Sequence record: NC_107013.1
Source: a phage
Direction: 5' to 3' (one strand)
DNA: 41,265 bases
The notes below the pieces were generated by a model. That model did not search any database. It had not been told where the DNA came from and worked only from the letters and a program-made list of their open reading frames with translations. Position numbers and translations under genes: made by a program. Position 1 is the first letter of the stretch; the number at the start of each line of letters is the position of its first letter. Of this stretch, positions 10,841-39,670 are shown piece after piece.

Positions 10841-11455
10841 ATGGCGAAGACTAAAACAGAGATGTTCACCCTTATCGGGACAAATCTCGCCGATAATACA
10901 ACTGGCGCTATAACCCCTGAGTTGTTGCGCGAGGTAAATACCCAGTTAGCGGACTCCATGCTTTACGCTGCATCCGGTGTTAAAGAGGTAGAAGTTCTCC
11001 GTGCCACGTCAACCGTGGCGCAAGCGCCTACCGCAGTAGATACAGCGTTACAGTTAACTTTCGGGGCTGCGCAGGGAGGCGCGTCTAACCCGGTAATGAT
11101 TAATGCCGCAGGGCTTGTTACATTCAACACCGCGGGTAACTACGCCGTTCGCATCAAGTTACAGGCGAGGCGTACTGGCGCTAGTGGGACATCAATCCTG
11201 CTATCACGTATTTTAGTAAACGGTGCTCAGTACGGCTCTCCCGCAGCAACTAAGCTGGTAAGCGCCGACATAACAATTCCTATTGAGTCCCGCGTTGTTA
11301 TTAGCCCAACCGCAGGCCAGACGTTTGCCGTTCATATTATGCGGGATAGCTCCGGGGCTAACTTTGGTGGCGTATATCCGCAAGTTGCTACCGTAACCGC
11401 ATGGGGTACAGCACCATCCGCATTACTGGTTATTTCGAGACTGGAGGCCGCTTGA
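10841..11455 (+). CDS. Virion structural protein (unknown role)
   Basis: Coupled to the upstream gene in the structural operon. Confidence 0.4.
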   Translation: MAKTKTEMFTLIGTNLADNTTGAITPELLREVNTQLADSMLYAASGVKEVEVLRATSTVAQAPTAVDTALQLTFGAAQGGASNPVMINAAGLVTFNTAGNYAVRIKLQARRTGASGTSILLSRILVNGAQYGSPAATKLVSADITIPIESRVVISPTAGQTFAVHIMRDSSGANFGGVYPQVATVTAWGTAPSALLVISRLEAA

Positions 11456-12301: not shown

Positions 12302-12714
12302 TGGGCTACTTTGAGGACTTAACAAAAGCGTTCGATGTTCCGCTGGTAGCCTTCGGAACCGCCAACGGCATCAAGGTCGCGCTTGAAAACATCGACGCGC
12401 CGACGTCAACCGATACGCCATATCTGGCAAGTTACATGTTACTGGCGGATACCGAGCAAGCAGATTTGTTCTTCACGGAACAACGCGCGGGTGTTTATCA
12501 GGTCGACATTAACTACGCATCGGTGAAAGGTAGCGCGCCAATCAATAAAATGGCAGACTTACTTAACACGGCATTCAAAGCAGGTAAGTCATTTTCTCGT
12601 AACGACATCTGCGCCGAGGTTCAATCGGTTAGCCTGGGGCCGCTGATTGTAGAAAACGGATGGGCCAAACGACCATTGTCAATTAACTTTATTGCATTCA
12701 CCAAGAGGCTGTGA
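12298..12714 (+). CDS. Tail terminator / tail completion protein (putative)
   Basis: Position before the major tail gene. Confidence 0.4.
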   Translation: MMGYFEDLTKAFDVPLVAFGTANGIKVALENIDAPTSTDTPYLASYMLLADTEQADLFFTEQRAGVYQVDINYASVKGSAPINKMADLLNTAFKAGKSFSRNDICAEVQSVSLGPLIVENGWAKRPLSINFIAFTKRL

Positions 12715-12716
12715 AT

Positions 12717-13883
12717 ATGGCTACAACTCCTTTTAAGGGCGCGAATACTGCGCAATTCTATGTGGCAGAAACTACCCCCGGCGTAACACCGACTAACCCG
12801 GTCTGGTCGCCATTGCGTAACACAGGTGGCGTTCCTGCCATTACCCGCGACACGCTGACCTCCAACGAACTGGACGGCAGCCGTGAAACTACGTCAATCC
12901 GCACCGGTAACAAGCAGGTTAGCGGAGAATACGCTATTGAGCTTAGCTCGAAAAGCCAGGACGACTGGCTGGCGGGTGCTTTAGGCTCTACATGGCAATC
13001 CGGTAGTTCTCTGACCGGGCTATCAATTACCGTCGCGCCTGCAGGCAAGACCTTTACCCGTGCCGAAGGTAGCTTTATTTCTGACGGCGTTGAAGTGGGC
13101 GACCTGATTGCGTTTACCGACTTAACCGGTGACAACGCAAAACCGTTTATCGTAACTGCAGTAGAGGCGCTGGTAGTGACCGGGGCGGGTATCCAGCATA
13201 CCCTGACCACAGAGACAGTAACTACCGCCGCTAAGACAGGGGATAAACTGGAAACGGGAAGCCAGTGCAAGACGTTCTCTATTCTCACCTGGTACAAAGG
13301 CCAGTGCGGCGGGACTGACGCGTACACACTAACCAAAGGCGTGGAAGTTTCTGGTTTTACCATCGAACAGGCTGTTAACGCTATGGTAACTGGCAGCTTC
13401 CCGTTCATCGGTCGCAGTCAGGAGATTCTCACCACGCAGCCGTCTGGTTCTGATTTCTCCTCTGTTACGTTTGGTGACGAGCCATTCTCCTCGGTCGATG
13501 TTTCTGTGTTCGACGGTTCTACGCCGTTGCGTTGCGACAGCCTGACCATCACCAACGACAACAGCGCGTCCGCACAGTTCGAACTCGGCAACACTAACGT
13601 AGCGTTTGTGGAGCGTAGCCGAGCAGCTAACACCTTCTCCATCTCCGGTAAGCTGTACGACATGGCGATGATTCAGAAGTTTATCAACGAGCAGCAGGTG
13701 GAGATTAACTCTATTCTGGCTGGGGTAAACGGGGCTATGTCTTTCAGTTTGAAACGTGCAGAACTTACGGCGGTTACACCTGAGATTGGAGGACCTGAGT
13801 CAATCACTCAGTCTATTGAAGGTCAGGCTACTGGCAACCAGTACCAGTCGTCTATTGTTATTCAGCGTATCACATACGCATAA
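12717..13883 (+). CDS. Major tail protein (putative)
   Basis: AGAGG RBS before ATG 12717; Thr/Ser/Gly-rich 389-aa ORF at the expected position. Confidence 0.55.
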   Translation: MATTPFKGANTAQFYVAETTPGVTPTNPVWSPLRNTGGVPAITRDTLTSNELDGSRETTSIRTGNKQVSGEYAIELSSKSQDDWLAGALGSTWQSGSSLTGLSITVAPAGKTFTRAEGSFISDGVEVGDLIAFTDLTGDNAKPFIVTAVEALVVTGAGIQHTLTTETVTTAAKTGDKLETGSQCKTFSILTWYKGQCGGTDAYTLTKGVEVSGFTIEQAVNAMVTGSFPFIGRSQEILTTQPSGSDFSSVTFGDEPFSSVDVSVFDGSTPLRCDSLTITNDNSASAQFELGNTNVAFVERSRAANTFSISGKLYDMAMIQKFINEQQVEINSILAGVNGAMSFSLKRAELTAVTPEIGGPESITQSIEGQATGNQYQSSIVIQRITYA

Positions 13884-13887
13884 AACT

Positions 13888-13912
13888 AAGGCCCCGTTTG
13901 GGGCCTTTTTCT
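13888..13912. terminator. Bidirectional terminator at a convergent junction
   Basis: GGCCCC-GTTT-GGGGCC hairpin flanked by A-run upstream and T-run downstream; near-identical to 26459-26484. Confidence 0.65.
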
Positions 13913-14466
13913 TACAAACCTAATCTTAAAGCAATGCCTATAGCGTTCGATTTAACGTAACCCGGTATGATGTAGGTGTCATAATCTTTTACACCATTAA
14001 TATCGTACAGGTAACCGCGGCTGTCCCCTTCAAACGTATGGCCGTCTCTGTGCAAGCGGACGATTCTCACATCATGCCCCGCGGCAACGATAGGGGCTAC
14101 TTCGCTGGCGAACCCGCCATCAGACACCACAAAAACTTCGTCGCCGTCGGGCAAGTTTCCGGCAAGATACTTACCGAAATAATCATCACCGAATACCGGT
14201 TTAATGAATTGCTCGGAAATGGCAATCATGAACTGACGCCGAGACAACCCGTTAAGGAAACCCTCTGGCTTTTCTTTCCGCGCCCGGTCGTCGTAGCCGT
14301 CGAGAAACTCGCGGTAAGCATCCTGGCCTAACGCAGCCATAGCAATATTGAACATCGGATTCTTGAAACTGGCGACACCCTTCGCAAAGCCCATTTCTAC
14401 CAGCGCCCTAGCAAGTGTGTCTTTCCCGCAGCCCGCAGGACCATTAAGAATAATTACCTTAGCCAT
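13912..14466 (-). CDS. P-loop kinase, dNMP-kinase-like (T4 gp1-type GKDT motif)
   Basis: Walker A NGPAGCGKDT; TAATG coupling to upstream gene. Confidence 0.55.
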   Translation of the reverse strand: MAKVIILNGPAGCGKDTLARALVEMGFAKGVASFKNPMFNIAMAALGQDAYREFLDGYDDRARKEKPEGFLNGLSRRQFMIAISEQFIKPVFGDDYFGKYLAGNLPDGDEVFVVSDGGFASEVAPIVAAGHDVRIVRLHRDGHTFEGDSRGYLYDINGVKDYDTYIIPGYVKSNAIGIALRLGL

Positions 14467-14951
14467 TATTTATCACTCCCATGTGGTTTTAAGTGTGTAG
14501 AGTTCCCGTTACAGTCGTATTCAGTAACTGCGTGAGTGGTTATGCCGAGTTCGCGGAAATGCTTTATTACCGCTGGAGAGTCGTCGAATGCACACAAGAT
14601 TCTCTCCGGCCCAATAGCACGCAACACCTCTTCTTTAATTACGATGTCTTTTCTGTTGTCGTGTTTGCTGCGCATGATTAACTGATAAAATTCGACGCGG
14701 TGGCGCTGCAACCACATTCTGGTTTCTTTTTCCGCGTCATCACTACGGCCTGTTAAGATAATAACGGCATAGCGACGATTAAGGGCGTTACACAGTTCGA
14801 TGTTATCTTTAATGGGTGCATCGTCTTTGCACGCCATGTTAAATGGTTTCCACGCCCAGGTTTCGCCGTAGTTATCTTTCGGCAGCAGGTGTAAACGATG
14901 AGTACCATCTGCCAATGTCCCGTCTAAATCGAAAATCACAATATCTTTCAT
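14466..14951 (-). CDS. HAD-superfamily phosphatase
   Basis: N-terminal FDLDGTL motif; further HAD-like Asp motifs. Confidence 0.65.
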   Translation of the reverse strand: MKDIVIFDLDGTLADGTHRLHLLPKDNYGETWAWKPFNMACKDDAPIKDNIELCNALNRRYAVIILTGRSDDAEKETRMWLQRHRVEFYQLIMRSKHDNRKDIVIKEEVLRAIGPERILCAFDDSPAVIKHFRELGITTHAVTEYDCNGNSTHLKPHGSDK

Positions 14952-16078
14952 CCAAGCATCTCCGGTGAAATAGTTAAACGTGCGACCTCGCCATATTCGG
15001 CGCTATAAGTAATTACGTTTGCACTGCGGCCAGACATCCACCCACCGCGGGAGGCATATGCATCTTTAGCCGCGAGAGTGCGGTGTTGCTCAACAATCAT
15101 GTTACGGCTTTCTACAATCTTTTGGTGGTGCAGGTGACCCACGTGGGCGTAGCTGTAAACACTCTCGCCGAACGCTTTGCGGAACTTGGCGATCATAACC
15201 GGTTCGATAGCGTCGAATCGTGCTTTATGCCCATGATGGAAGAACAGCGTCGTTTTGCCGTGTTGCACCATCTTGTAAACATCCGGCGACGTATCGACGA
15301 ACACACGCGGCTCATTGTCGTACAGCGTACTAAACATCTCAGCTAACCAAATCATTCCGCTTTCGTCGTGGTTACCTTGCACGATAAGCAAGCGAACATT
15401 TTTATGTTTAACGAGAGCCATATCAATGACACGGCGGACCATACGAATCATGTAGCGTACAAGTTTCTGATAGCGGGTGTCAGCGTCAAGAACATGACCA
15501 CTGGCAGGTGTAACGGCGTCCAGACTATCGAAATGCGCAAGGTCGCCCAGCAGATTAATAACTCCTGTTCCGGCATCCGGTGCTTTCTGGAACGCTGCGT
15601 CGAACCAGCGGGAGAACAGGTCTTCCGCAATCTTCATGTCCCAGTCGTCTCCGCTCTCGTCAGCCCAGGCCAGCATACCGAGATGGAAATCAGACACAGT
15701 GTAAAGGTTGAGTAGATTGTCGTCTCGTTTGGCGCGAACGGCTTTAACAGGTGCAACTGGTGTAATCTCCGACTTCATGCCTTCGATTACGGCTTTCATC
15801 AATTCAACCTGACGTTCGGCATCGGTGTCGGTCTTAACCCATTGCAACTTGGTGTTGCCAAACTCATCCACCAGTGATGACGTTCCTTTAATCTTGTAGC
15901 CGTCCGGTACAAGGTAACTAACGTCACGCCCGTGGCCTACACCTTTCTTAGCCAGCTTCGCTTTACGGATACGAATAACGCGGTCGGAGATGCCGTATTT
16001 ACGGGCGATGTCGATATTCTTCATACCGGCGTTCAATTCTTCCTGTAACTGTTCGTCGGTTATTTTCTTCCTGGCCAT
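14948..16078 (-). CDS. Calcineurin-like metallophosphoesterase with N-terminal HTH
   Basis: Motifs DFH, GDLAHFD, GNHDE, HHGH, GHLHH; N-terminal NIDIARKYGISDRVIRIRK. Confidence 0.7.
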   Translation of the reverse strand: MARKKITDEQLQEELNAGMKNIDIARKYGISDRVIRIRKAKLAKKGVGHGRDVSYLVPDGYKIKGTSSLVDEFGNTKLQWVKTDTDAERQVELMKAVIEGMKSEITPVAPVKAVRAKRDDNLLNLYTVSDFHLGMLAWADESGDDWDMKIAEDLFSRWFDAAFQKAPDAGTGVINLLGDLAHFDSLDAVTPASGHVLDADTRYQKLVRYMIRMVRRVIDMALVKHKNVRLLIVQGNHDESGMIWLAEMFSTLYDNEPRVFVDTSPDVYKMVQHGKTTLFFHHGHKARFDAIEPVMIAKFRKAFGESVYSYAHVGHLHHQKIVESRNMIVEQHRTLAAKDAYASRGGWMSGRSANVITYSAEYGEVARLTISPEMLG

Positions 16079-16115
16079 GCTTATTCCTCGTGTTTAGGAT
16101 TTGTCCTATACTAGC

Positions 16116-16307
16116 TCACTTCTCTTTGACATTCGAGTTGCACGCCCAGATTAAGATAAATACCCACGGCAGCAGAACCCAACCAAGAAACAGATTAGCC
16201 ATGAATATCGCTAACTTCGCTTTATGGTTACGGAAGTACGCAACCAGGAAAGGCGCGAAATAAGCGAGCAGTGCAAACAGAATTAAGGAAACTGGTAAAC
16301 TGGACAT
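16116..16307 (-). CDS. Superinfection-immunity (Imm-like) small membrane protein
   Basis: Two TM segments with YF...N-LFLGW...LIWA pattern; AAGGGG RBS before internal ATG (16307). Confidence 0.55.
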   Translation of the reverse strand: MSSLPVSLILFALLAYFAPFLVAYFRNHKAKLAIFMANLFLGWVLLPWVFILIWACNSNVKEK

Positions 16308-16337
16308 TTTAAACCCCTTCATTGTTGGTGTAAGTGA

Positions 16338-16366
16338 ATAGTACCCTATTATATTGGGGTGTGCAA
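16338..16366 (-). promoter_or_regulatory. Class II promoter TTGCAC-N17-TACTAT with conserved spacer, upstream of the Imm-like gene
   Basis: 33-bp near-identity to the plus-strand promoter at 38351-38383. Confidence 0.5.
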
Positions 16367-16381
16367 GTAATGTGATAGAAT
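16354..16381 (+). promoter_or_regulatory. Putative promoter (TTGGGG-N16-TGaTAGAAT) for the tail operon, back-to-back with the minus promoter
   Basis: TG-extended -10; location upstream of the chaperone/tape-measure genes. Confidence 0.3.
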
Positions 16382-16474
16382 AAGTTTGCGCCTAGTGTCG
16401 CACACGAAAAGCGGGTGGTTCCCGTCTGGCGCATTTATCGTTAACCTGTAACCTCTTAACCAAAGGATTAAAGA

Positions 16475-16891
16475 ATGAAACTTTCTGATTTTTATTTCGA
16501 AGAGAAAGCACTGGTAGGCAAGAAGATGCCCATTCTGCTGCCAAACGGCGAAGACTCCGGTGAATGGCTTAACGTTGTAAGTCCCGATGCGGATGTCGCC
16601 GTTAAAGCGGGGCGTGCTTTCATTATTGCGTACCGTCGCGGACTGGCGCGTTTCGAAGAACTGGAAAAAGCCGCCAAAGAATCCGGCGACTATACTGAAT
16701 ATAACCTGGCTATTAACGAACTGGCGGAAGGCCTCAACCGGCAACTCGCGGCAGAAGTCGTAAACGGCTGGAGCTTTGATGAGCCTTTCTCTAAAGAAGC
16801 ATTTAACAAATTGCTGGACCAGTTCAAGGCATTAGGCACACAGGTAGCAGCGTTCCATAACGCTGAGCGCAAAGCATTACAGGAAAAGTAG
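16475..16891 (+). CDS. Tail assembly chaperone (putative, by position)
   Basis: AAAGGA RBS; acidic 138-aa protein two genes upstream of the tape measure. Confidence 0.4.
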   Translation: MKLSDFYFEEKALVGKKMPILLPNGEDSGEWLNVVSPDADVAVKAGRAFIIAYRRGLARFEELEKAAKESGDYTEYNLAINELAEGLNRQLAAEVVNGWSFDEPFSKEAFNKLLDQFKALGTQVAAFHNAERKALQEK

Positions 16892-16923: not shown

Positions 16924-17256
16924 GTGGATAAGCATAAAATCAGAGAGTTTGATTCTATAGCCGACGGACACGAACAGGCGCTTATCGCGATGGGTGTAAT
17001 CGATAAGAAAAAACGTGCAGCGCGACGGGGTGGGCCAGAATGCCCGCCCCTTTTTATATCCACCTTCGAGACGTACTGCGACATTAAGTTTACGCGACAC
17101 GTGCGCGAGGACGCTGTAGTATTGTTTGCAAGAGAATCCGTTACGTGGCAAGACCTGAAAGCCTATCTCGATGTTACGCAAAAACAGCTTAGCCTGTTCG
17201 AGATAGACATTATCATGGGCTTAGAAGCAATCTTTGAAGGTAGAAATCATGGCTGA
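16924..17256 (+). CDS. Hypothetical protein (possible second chaperone component); start uncertain
   Basis: ORF in -1 frame relative to 16475..16891; stop overlaps tape-measure start; no canonical slippery heptamer seen. Confidence 0.35.
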   Translation: MDKHKIREFDSIADGHEQALIAMGVIDKKKRAARRGGPECPPLFISTFETYCDIKFTRHVREDAVVLFARESVTWQDLKAYLDVTQKQLSLFEIDIIMGLEAIFEGRNHG

Positions 17257-38350: not shown

Positions 38351-38379
38351 TTGCACGCCCCAACATAATAGGATACTAT
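38351..38379 (+). promoter_or_regulatory. Class II promoter TTGCAC-N17-TACTAT with conserved spacer
   Basis: 33-bp near-identity with minus-strand promoter at 16338-16366. Confidence 0.5.
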
Positions 38380-39641: not shown

Positions 39642-39670
39642 TTGCACACTAAGATAGAATAAGCTACTAT
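39642..39670 (+). promoter_or_regulatory. Promoter TTGCAC-N17-TACTAT (class II-like hexamers, divergent spacer)
   Basis: Hexamers and spacing. Confidence 0.4.

Follow-up and report, generated by a model that had tools for sequence, protein, structure and literature searches.

The deoxynucleoside monophosphate (dNMP) kinase (DNK) of phage Rao1, R1DNK, accepts dAMP, dGMP, dCMP and dTMP and converts them to the respective diphosphates (dNDPs); its K15A mutant is inactive, the enzyme triggers the KomABC (Kongming) defence, and deletion of dnk leaves dATP moderately lower in infection (bioRxiv 10.1101/2024.12.20.629578). The kinase gene is the last of three, preceded by genes for a HAD phosphatase and for a calcineurin-like metallophosphoesterase (MPE) fused to a helix-turn-helix (HTH) domain. 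We analysed the counterpart of this trio in a stretch of phage DNA of 41,265 nucleotides (sequence record NC_107013.1), the whole of which is referred to below as the window. Together with a gene for an Imm-family membrane protein, the trio makes up a minus-strand cassette at positions 13912-16322. The four genes look like an ordinary, already annotated set for DNA and nucleotide metabolism, rather than an RNA-repair system, and the kinase is, by its sequence, a dNMP kinase and not a polynucleotide kinase.

Each member of the trio has further described relatives. The dNMP kinase of T4, gp1 (PDB 1DEK), is a protein of 241 aa, which, unlike R1DNK, does not use dAMP and dCMP according to the T4 record. 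HAD phosphatase domains form part of T4 PseT and of Pnkp1, a component of the bacterial Pnkp1-Rnl-Hen1 RNA-repair system, and the Pnkp of Clostridium thermocellum provides a likeness of the kinase/phosphatase/MPE type. Dmp of phage T5 is a proven 5'-dNMP phosphatase (5'-deoxyribonucleotidase) and an anti-Kongming factor; it is the product of a pre-early gene, and T5 also encodes a DNK. The two-metal calcineurin-like fold is found in Mre11/SbcD and in DP1 of archaeal PolD. Recycling of host DNA in T4 and T7 is the analogue of the pathway proposed below. In a pangenome study of Drexlerviridae (2026), an 'exonuclease', which corresponds to the MPE, was persistent in 508 of 522 genomes and was often followed by a 'polynucleotide kinase' and a dNMP kinase, for which the authors guessed a role in nucleotide supply (PMC13164509).

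The window is essentially the complete genome of a K1G-like siphovirus, a coliphage of the genus Kagunavirus (Guernseyvirinae). Across region 13500-16800, identity amounts to 99.5% with Escherichia phage vB_EcoS_fKuEco01 (MT711525) and to 98.4% with K1G; phage records matching this region number 309, and syntenic relatives run into the hundreds. Over the whole window, 40,516 bp are collinear with MT711525 at 94-98% identity, and 749 bp lack a counterpart there. The cassette breaks the plus-strand tail operon, with the tube gene on one side and the assembly chaperones and tape measure on the other; its four minus-strand open reading frames (ORFs) lie exactly where the original prediction, made from the sequence of the window alone, had placed them. 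That they are real genes is argued by several lines of evidence: family matches (phrog_139 at 159 bits for the kinase, phrog_415 at 226 bits for the HAD protein, phrog_704 at 557 bits for the MPE, and PF14373 at 48 bits for the Imm protein), a GC skew that is negative across 14-16 kb, i.e., over the cassette, overlapping stops and starts, Shine-Dalgarno sequences, and the syntenic relatives. Packing is tight, in that the MPE stop and the HAD start overlap as ATGA, and the HAD stop and the kinase start overlap as TAATG; a GAGGAA Shine-Dalgarno sequence sits 5' of the MPE gene. In the near-identical GenBank entry for fKuEco01, all four products are already named in this way, and the four domain assignments of the original prediction agree with the Pfam, PHROG and fold matches, with the GCGKDT and DLDGT motifs in place. 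NCBIfam and PADLOC searches returned nothing useful for the cassette.

In the kinase, a Pfam search detects only the P-loop, GPAGCGKDT at residues 9-17 (GCGKDT at 12-17). None of G14, K15, D16 and T17 varies among 67 homologues, and K15 is the counterpart of the lysine whose replacement inactivates R1DNK. The protein scores 158.9 bits with phrog_139 (profile positions 82-241), the family that also includes T4 gp1 (222.6 bits, positions 83-261), although it is shorter than gp1 and only 20% identical to it. A fold search places it nearest to dNMP and NMP kinases, and it is 50% identical to R1DNK over 172 residues. Comparison with PDB, using either the single sequence or a four-sequence profile, produced only generic P-loop matches, and hhalign against T4 gp1 aligned the P-loop alone; it is thus the PHROG profile, the fold search and the comparison with R1DNK that support placing the protein in this family. 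T4 gene 1 (L091:2150-2875) is also located among late structural genes (57A, 3, 2 and 4), in parallel to the placement of the kinase gene in the window.

The class of the kinase bears directly on the proposal that kinase and HAD protein constitute a split polynucleotide kinase-phosphatase (PNKP), in which the kinase would act on 5'-OH ends and the HAD protein, possibly with the MPE, on 3'-phosphate or 2',3'-cyclic phosphate ends, healing tRNA or DNA that host anticodon nucleases have cut, for a ligase to reseal. The window kinase matches neither of the Pnk kinase families phrog_505 and phrog_2071, where T4-type PseT belongs, and has no Pnk-type 5'-OH kinase domain. The original prediction, which had raised the end-healing idea, had itself noted a better fit of the P-loop to a dNMP kinase, and this caveat is correct. 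It had also set ordinary dNTP-metabolism families with syntenic homologues against its own proposal, and for the kinase this is largely what we find.

The HAD protein speaks for the split-PNKP proposal. It scores 72.1 bits with PF25109, HAD_PNKP (cut-off 27.6), in addition to its phrog_415 match, and its best solved relatives in PDB are Pnkp1 (4xrp) and the phosphatase domain of T4 Pnk (1ltq). The DLDGT motif occupies residues 8-12. According to Wang and Shuman (2002), D165, D167, R176, R213, D254, D277 and D278 are reportedly essential for the 3'-phosphatase activity of T4 Pnkp; the positions of these seven residues were checked in the T4 sequence, and alignment with T4-type PseT shows that all seven are kept in the window protein, as D8, D10, R19, R69, D102, D123 and D124, each at least 95% conserved among 72 family members. 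Thus the phosphatase is of the true PNKP type, with the DxDGT motif and the essential residues in common with T4 PseT and Pnkp1, and, in company with the kinase and the MPE, loosely recalls the Pnkp of T4 and that of C. thermocellum. In contrast to PseT and Pnkp1, however, the window HAD protein is not fused to a kinase: the two are separate ORFs overlapping by 1 nt, phosphatase before kinase, and the adjoining kinase is of another type than Pnk.

The same HAD protein also has ties to T5 Dmp, whose sequence we took from the supplement of bioRxiv 10.1101/2024.12.20.629578. Dmp falls in phrog_415 with 194.6 bits over the whole profile, and the two proteins have similar N-terminal DLDGT...HR motifs. 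Since this proven 5'-dNMP phosphatase is in phrog_415, the 'polynucleotide kinase' label of that family is a misnomer, and members of the clade can act on mononucleotides. BLASTP aligns 48 residues of the window HAD protein with Dmp; a hidden Markov model of the HAD family gives T4-type PseT 43.8 bits and T5 Dmp 14.4 bits, and Dmp has no Pfam match. The window protein thus appears nearer to PNKP phosphatases than to T5 Dmp.

The MPE belongs to a large family, with 4,633 clusters (50% identity) at E < 0.001. It falls short of the Pfam gathering scores, with 21.6 for PF12850 (cut-off 27) and 18.9 for PF00149 (cut-off 21.5), but is nonetheless a member of the calcineurin-like superfamily by its fold and motifs. 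The five motifs, DxH, GD, GNH[DE], H and GHxH, are present, and D130, H132, G178, D179, N236, H237, H282, G314 and H317 are invariant in 91 diverse sequences; a first large protein search had returned only relatives at 97% identity or above, and the alignment was built from a representative search. In the AlphaFold model (predicted local distance difference test, pLDDT, 93.2), a three-helix N-terminal domain is followed by a β-hairpin, a long helix and the phosphoesterase core. The N-terminal domain weakly resembles GerE/LuxR or sigma region 4. The best fold matches of the MPE are nucleases, namely the PolD DP1 proofreading exonuclease, Mre11 and SbcD; its sequence profile finds only marginal matches in PDB, to GerE and to Mre11/SbcD (E ~0.2). 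The window protein shares all five motifs with Mre11/SbcD and DP1, and differs from them in having the HTH and β-hairpin module where those proteins have the region that binds Rad50/SbcC or DP2. No Rad50/SbcC ATPase partner is found in the fKuEco01 annotation. The fold class of the model and the presence of a DNA-binding domain suggest that the MPE is most likely a DNA nuclease.

The gene order among relatives is informative. HTH-MPE genes were found in 2,053 phage records, kinase genes in 1,543, and HAD genes in 2,994. Throughout Guernseyvirinae, Dhillonvirus and Drexlerviridae, the HTH-MPE gene is part of the constant core. In the Jerseyvirus records examined, the MPE gene (55-89% identity) occupies the same inverted slot with neither HAD nor kinase, and is followed instead by a gene for a 76-aa protein, an HNH endonuclease or an Ant-like protein; the 76-aa gene was considered as a remnant of the HAD or kinase gene, and comparison shows no relation. 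The MPE is likewise alone in Dhillonvirus and in T1. In the latter, HAD and kinase genes lie together about 35 kb from it, with an HNH gene inserted between them. Of 80 viral contigs with the kinase gene, 73 have the HAD gene upstream of it and in the same orientation, and in 22 of the 80, comprising 16 Kagunavirus loci and 6 others, the MPE gene is directly upstream. Webervirus and Rao1 have the identical MPE-HAD-kinase order, and the Rao1 proteins gp56 (MPE), gp57 (HAD) and gp58 (R1DNK) are, respectively, 45%, 50% and 50% identical to those of the window. In Drexlerviridae, including Rao1 and Webervirus, the trio lies by the replication genes and directly ahead of the lysis genes, with the same orientation as its neighbours, whereas in the window it is inverted within the tail module, has the Imm gene in first place, and is provided with its own promoter and terminator. 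The layout of the Kagunavirus cassette can be summarised as a promoter, an exchangeable gene for a membrane or secreted protein, the constant MPE gene, a genus-specific tail (HAD and kinase genes in Kagunavirus), and a terminator.

The Imm protein matches PF14373 with 48.3 bits (cut-off 27.9) and also phrog_1039. It shares with T4 Imm the domain, the small size and two transmembrane helices, the hydrophobic segments being at about residues 3-25 and 32-57, and is shorter than the T4 protein, at 63-68 aa. The start is most likely ATG 16307, which is preceded by an AAGGGG Shine-Dalgarno sequence and is the start used in the fKuEco01 annotation; ATG 16322 has no such sequence. Five of the 16 Kagunavirus loci, as well as Jerseyvirus ER9, have an unrelated phrog_14165 protein of 108-109 aa, with a signal-peptide-like N-terminus, in the very position of Imm. 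The slot that follows the conserved promoter is thus a site of exchange, and the replacement is a candidate for an alternative superinfection-exclusion protein. The description of the cassette as a moron-like island thus holds in part: relatives differ in the Imm slot and in the HAD-kinase pair, and a promoter and a terminator are present and conserved, but the MPE gene is constant.

Evidence for a dedicated promoter comes from conservation and from recurrence of its motif. The -10 TATAAT is contained in a 26-nt motif, TTGCACACCCCAATATAATAGGGTAC (16366-16341, minus strand). A promoter consensus scan performs no better than shuffled controls (7 sites vs 4.2 +/- 1.8); the promoter is supported despite this, because its -10 element and surroundings are near-invariant across 13 relatives and because the motif recurs, with 3 mismatches, as TTGCACGCCCCAACATAATAGGATAC at 38351-38376 on the plus strand. 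This second copy is in a divergent intergenic region, directly upstream of small genes clustered in rightward orientation. At 39642-39667 on the plus strand is a weaker copy that has 7 mismatches. The recurrence suggests a phage promoter class or a site for a shared regulator, in line with the promoter class that had been attributed to the cassette. At the other end, between the convergent tail tube and kinase genes, is the hairpin that had been named as a bidirectional terminator. It is found on both strands and has an 8-bp stem with 6 G-C pairs. The plus-strand hairpin (-15.5 kcal/mol) comes with a good T-run, TTTTCTT; that of the minus strand has a folding energy of -19.0 kcal/mol and a weaker T-run. 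A bidirectional intrinsic terminator is probable from these features.

Taking these observations together, we think it probable, though by a modest measure, that the cassette is a leftward early-type operon set within the late tail module, devoted to dNMP salvage, DNA metabolism and superinfection exclusion. In its favour are the intact active sites, the overlapping stops and starts, and the linkage of the three genes in other phages. The operon would begin with the promoter near 16350, end with the hairpin at 13888-13907 and yield the four products; such expression is supported by the motif shared with the promoter of the small-gene cluster and by the orientation of the cassette, which is that of the replication genes. 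The Imm protein, in the inner membrane, would probably block DNA entry of a superinfecting phage. The MPE, a two-metal phosphodiesterase tethered by its HTH domain, would most likely cut or trim DNA, so that fragments of host or damaged DNA would be produced, or trimmed, down to 5'-dNMPs. The HAD phosphatase may strip blocking phosphates, such as those of 3'-phosphate ends and 3'-dNMPs, or else remove unwanted dNMPs. The kinase, with its broad specificity, would turn 5'-dNMPs into dNDPs, from which host Ndk would make dNTPs for phage replication; this step has behind it the published biochemistry of R1DNK, which is 50% identical and comes from a trio of the same order. A search for genes of host-DNA degradation in T1 found nothing in the literature collection covered.

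Several points weigh against this operon reading. Early timing is suggested only by the similarity of the promoter and the orientation of the genes. Jerseyviruses keep the MPE without HAD and kinase, so that the MPE does not depend on them. The HAD phosphatase shares its PHROG with the 5'-dNMPase T5 Dmp, and an enzyme of that kind, when co-expressed with a dNMP kinase, would set up an apparent futile cycle. Finally, the Rao1 dnk deletion comes without measurable fitness cost, i.e., salvage is dispensable in the laboratory (bioRxiv 10.1101/2024.12.20.629578).

An explanation that we regard as unlikely, yet deserving of attention, is that HAD and kinase are a counter-defence pair, in which a Dmp-like phosphatase would clear dAMP, or modified dNMPs such as dIMP and m6-dAMP, beside the kinase, so that neither the kinase nor breakdown of host DNA would set off the nucleotide-sensing defences Kongming, PUA-Cal-HAD or ApeA. 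Membership of Dmp and the window protein in one PHROG is consistent with such a role, as are the near-universal adjacency of HAD and kinase genes and the reported co-occurrence of Dmp homologues with DNKs; DNKs of this family, from Rao1 and from siphophage vB_KpnS-VAC2, do trigger Kongming (bioRxiv 10.1101/2024.12.20.629578). Guernseyvirinae are, moreover, sensitive to Ec2ApeA, a sensor of dinucleotides from DNA breakdown; the papers on ApeA and on retron Eco2 name these phage groups and leave the genes of the cassette unmentioned. Against this, Rao1 is sensitive to Kongming even though its DNK gene has the gene for the orthologous HAD protein, gp57, as a neighbour; mapping of Rao1 escapers leads to dnk. 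The HAD family model scores given above favour PseT over Dmp, and only the window protein, not Dmp, matches HAD_PNKP. ATP would also be wasted if a co-translated kinase and phosphatase used the same 5'-dNMPs; T5 Dmp, as a pre-early product, is separated in time from the T5 dnk gene, whereas the window HAD and kinase are translationally coupled.

More doubtful still is a role in cleaning of DNA ends, where the HTH-MPE and the HAD protein, as a 3'-phosphatase, would process damaged or blocked ends of phage DNA to 3'-OH for the phage polymerase or host LigA, with the kinase a mere neighbour. The nearest folds of the MPE, i.e., DP1, Mre11 and SbcD, are indeed nucleases of DNA ends, in T1, Webervirus and Dhillonvirus the MPE gene belongs to the core and has replication or lysis genes nearby, the residues of a PNKP-type phosphatase are intact in the HAD protein, and the phage has its own polymerase, helicases, Cas4-like nuclease and VRR-NUC protein, as annotated in fKuEco01. 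The missing Rad50/SbcC partner in that annotation, however, argues to the contrary, and so does the gene order: the HAD gene follows the kinase gene in its occurrence, not the MPE gene, as seen in T1, where HAD and kinase are together and far from the MPE, and in Jerseyviruses, which have the MPE without HAD.

We give similarly little credence to the larger scheme in which the MPE, HAD and DNK form one pathway that recycles breakdown products of host DNA and, at the same time, hides them from nucleotide-sensing immunity. Under this scheme, the HAD protein may be a selective phosphatase for 'danger' nucleotides, with the kinase rescuing canonical dNMPs; candidates for the former may be dAMP and dIMP, as precursors of Kongming dITP, m6-dAMP for PUA-Cal-HAD, and 5'-phosphorylated dinucleotides for ApeA. 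Selection for coupling would, in that case, be the reason why one gene order was assembled repeatedly, in Kagunavirus and in Drexlerviridae.

The split PNKP, with tRNA repair, is very improbable, and fails because the kinase is of the wrong class, its 50%-identical relative R1DNK making dNDPs from dNMPs, and because no RNA or DNA ligase is annotated in fKuEco01, from which just the 749 bp of the window differ by having no counterpart; besides, healing would be useless to host RtcB, which joins 3'-P and 5'-OH ends directly.

Table. Positions of the cassette genes, signals, flanking genes and related loci (coordinates refer to the window unless preceded by a locus number)
Feature	Position	Strand	Remarks
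Kinase, dNMP kinase (DNK) of the T4 gp1 / Rao1 R1DNK family	13912-14466	-	184 aa
Stand-alone HAD phosphatase, PNKP/Dmp clade	14466-14951	-	161 aa; stop overlaps kinase start
HTH-fused calcineurin-like metallophosphoesterase (MPE)	14948-16078	-	376 aa; phrog_704; Mre11/SbcD/PolD-DP1-like fold
Imm-family membrane protein	16116-16307	-	63 aa from ATG 16307; 68-aa ORF, 16116-16322
Cassette promoter	16341-16376	-	site at 16376-16348: -35-like ATCACA, 17 nt, -10 TATAAT; 10 of 12 consensus positions
Hairpin AAGGCCCC-GTTT-GGGGCCTT, probable terminator	13888-13907	both	between convergent tail tube and kinase genes
Conserved intergenic element	16380-16440		between cassette promoter and tail-chaperone gene; inverted repeat TGCGCC...GGCGCA
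Tail tube gene	12711-13883	+	PF18906, 141 bits
Tail-assembly chaperones	16475-16891, 16924-17256	+	tape measure gene next
phrog_14165 proteins replacing Imm	L012:2997-3323; also L015, L019, L022, L024; L006:2609-2938		L006 is Jerseyvirus
HNH loci	L009:3004-3498, L003:5207-5689		T1
HNH locus	L007:4671-5171		Salmonella phage horsemountain
HNH locus	L005:5241-5750		Vibrio phage K174

The intergenic element between the cassette promoter and the first chaperone gene is near-invariant in the 13 relatives; its folding energy is -18 to -19 kcal/mol, whichever strand is folded. Inside it is a further hairpin, CGGG-N5-CCCG, followed by CTTTTCG. The element may be an operator, or it may serve the late tail operon as a site of restart or antitermination. 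A 41-aa ORF annotated in relatives at 16309-16434 was considered as a fifth gene of the cassette; it overlaps the conserved promoter and the intergenic element, the region is conserved at the DNA level, and the ORF is probably not a gene. A pathway of base hypermodification was also considered and rejected, as the fKuEco01 annotation contains no such genes.

In different phage lineages, HNH homing-endonuclease genes recur either directly beside the MPE gene or in between those for HAD and kinase, and the MPE/HAD/kinase neighbourhood appears to be a frequent target of homing. As to the rest of the genome, the fKuEco01 annotation joins the two tail-assembly chaperone genes as one product of programmed frameshifting, and includes a second frameshift product, KE1_013/014, in the head-tail connector region. 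The sole sizeable stretch of the window without a counterpart in fKuEco01, 10880-11368 (489 bp), is also in the head-tail connector region.

Much of what the cassette encodes is already known: the products are named in fKuEco01, the kinase family has been characterised experimentally, and the trio has been noted in Drexlerviridae. The 'polynucleotide kinase' label of phrog_415 misleads in thousands of phage genomes, where it is attached to stand-alone phosphatases, T5 Dmp among them, and the partner kinase in these siphoviruses is a dNMP kinase, not a kinase of RNA or DNA ends. The trio of HTH-phosphoesterase, HAD phosphatase and kinase is widely conserved, with a putative integrated role. Because the kinase family is a known trigger of Kongming, K1-specific therapeutic phages of this genus are predicted to be sensitive to that defence.

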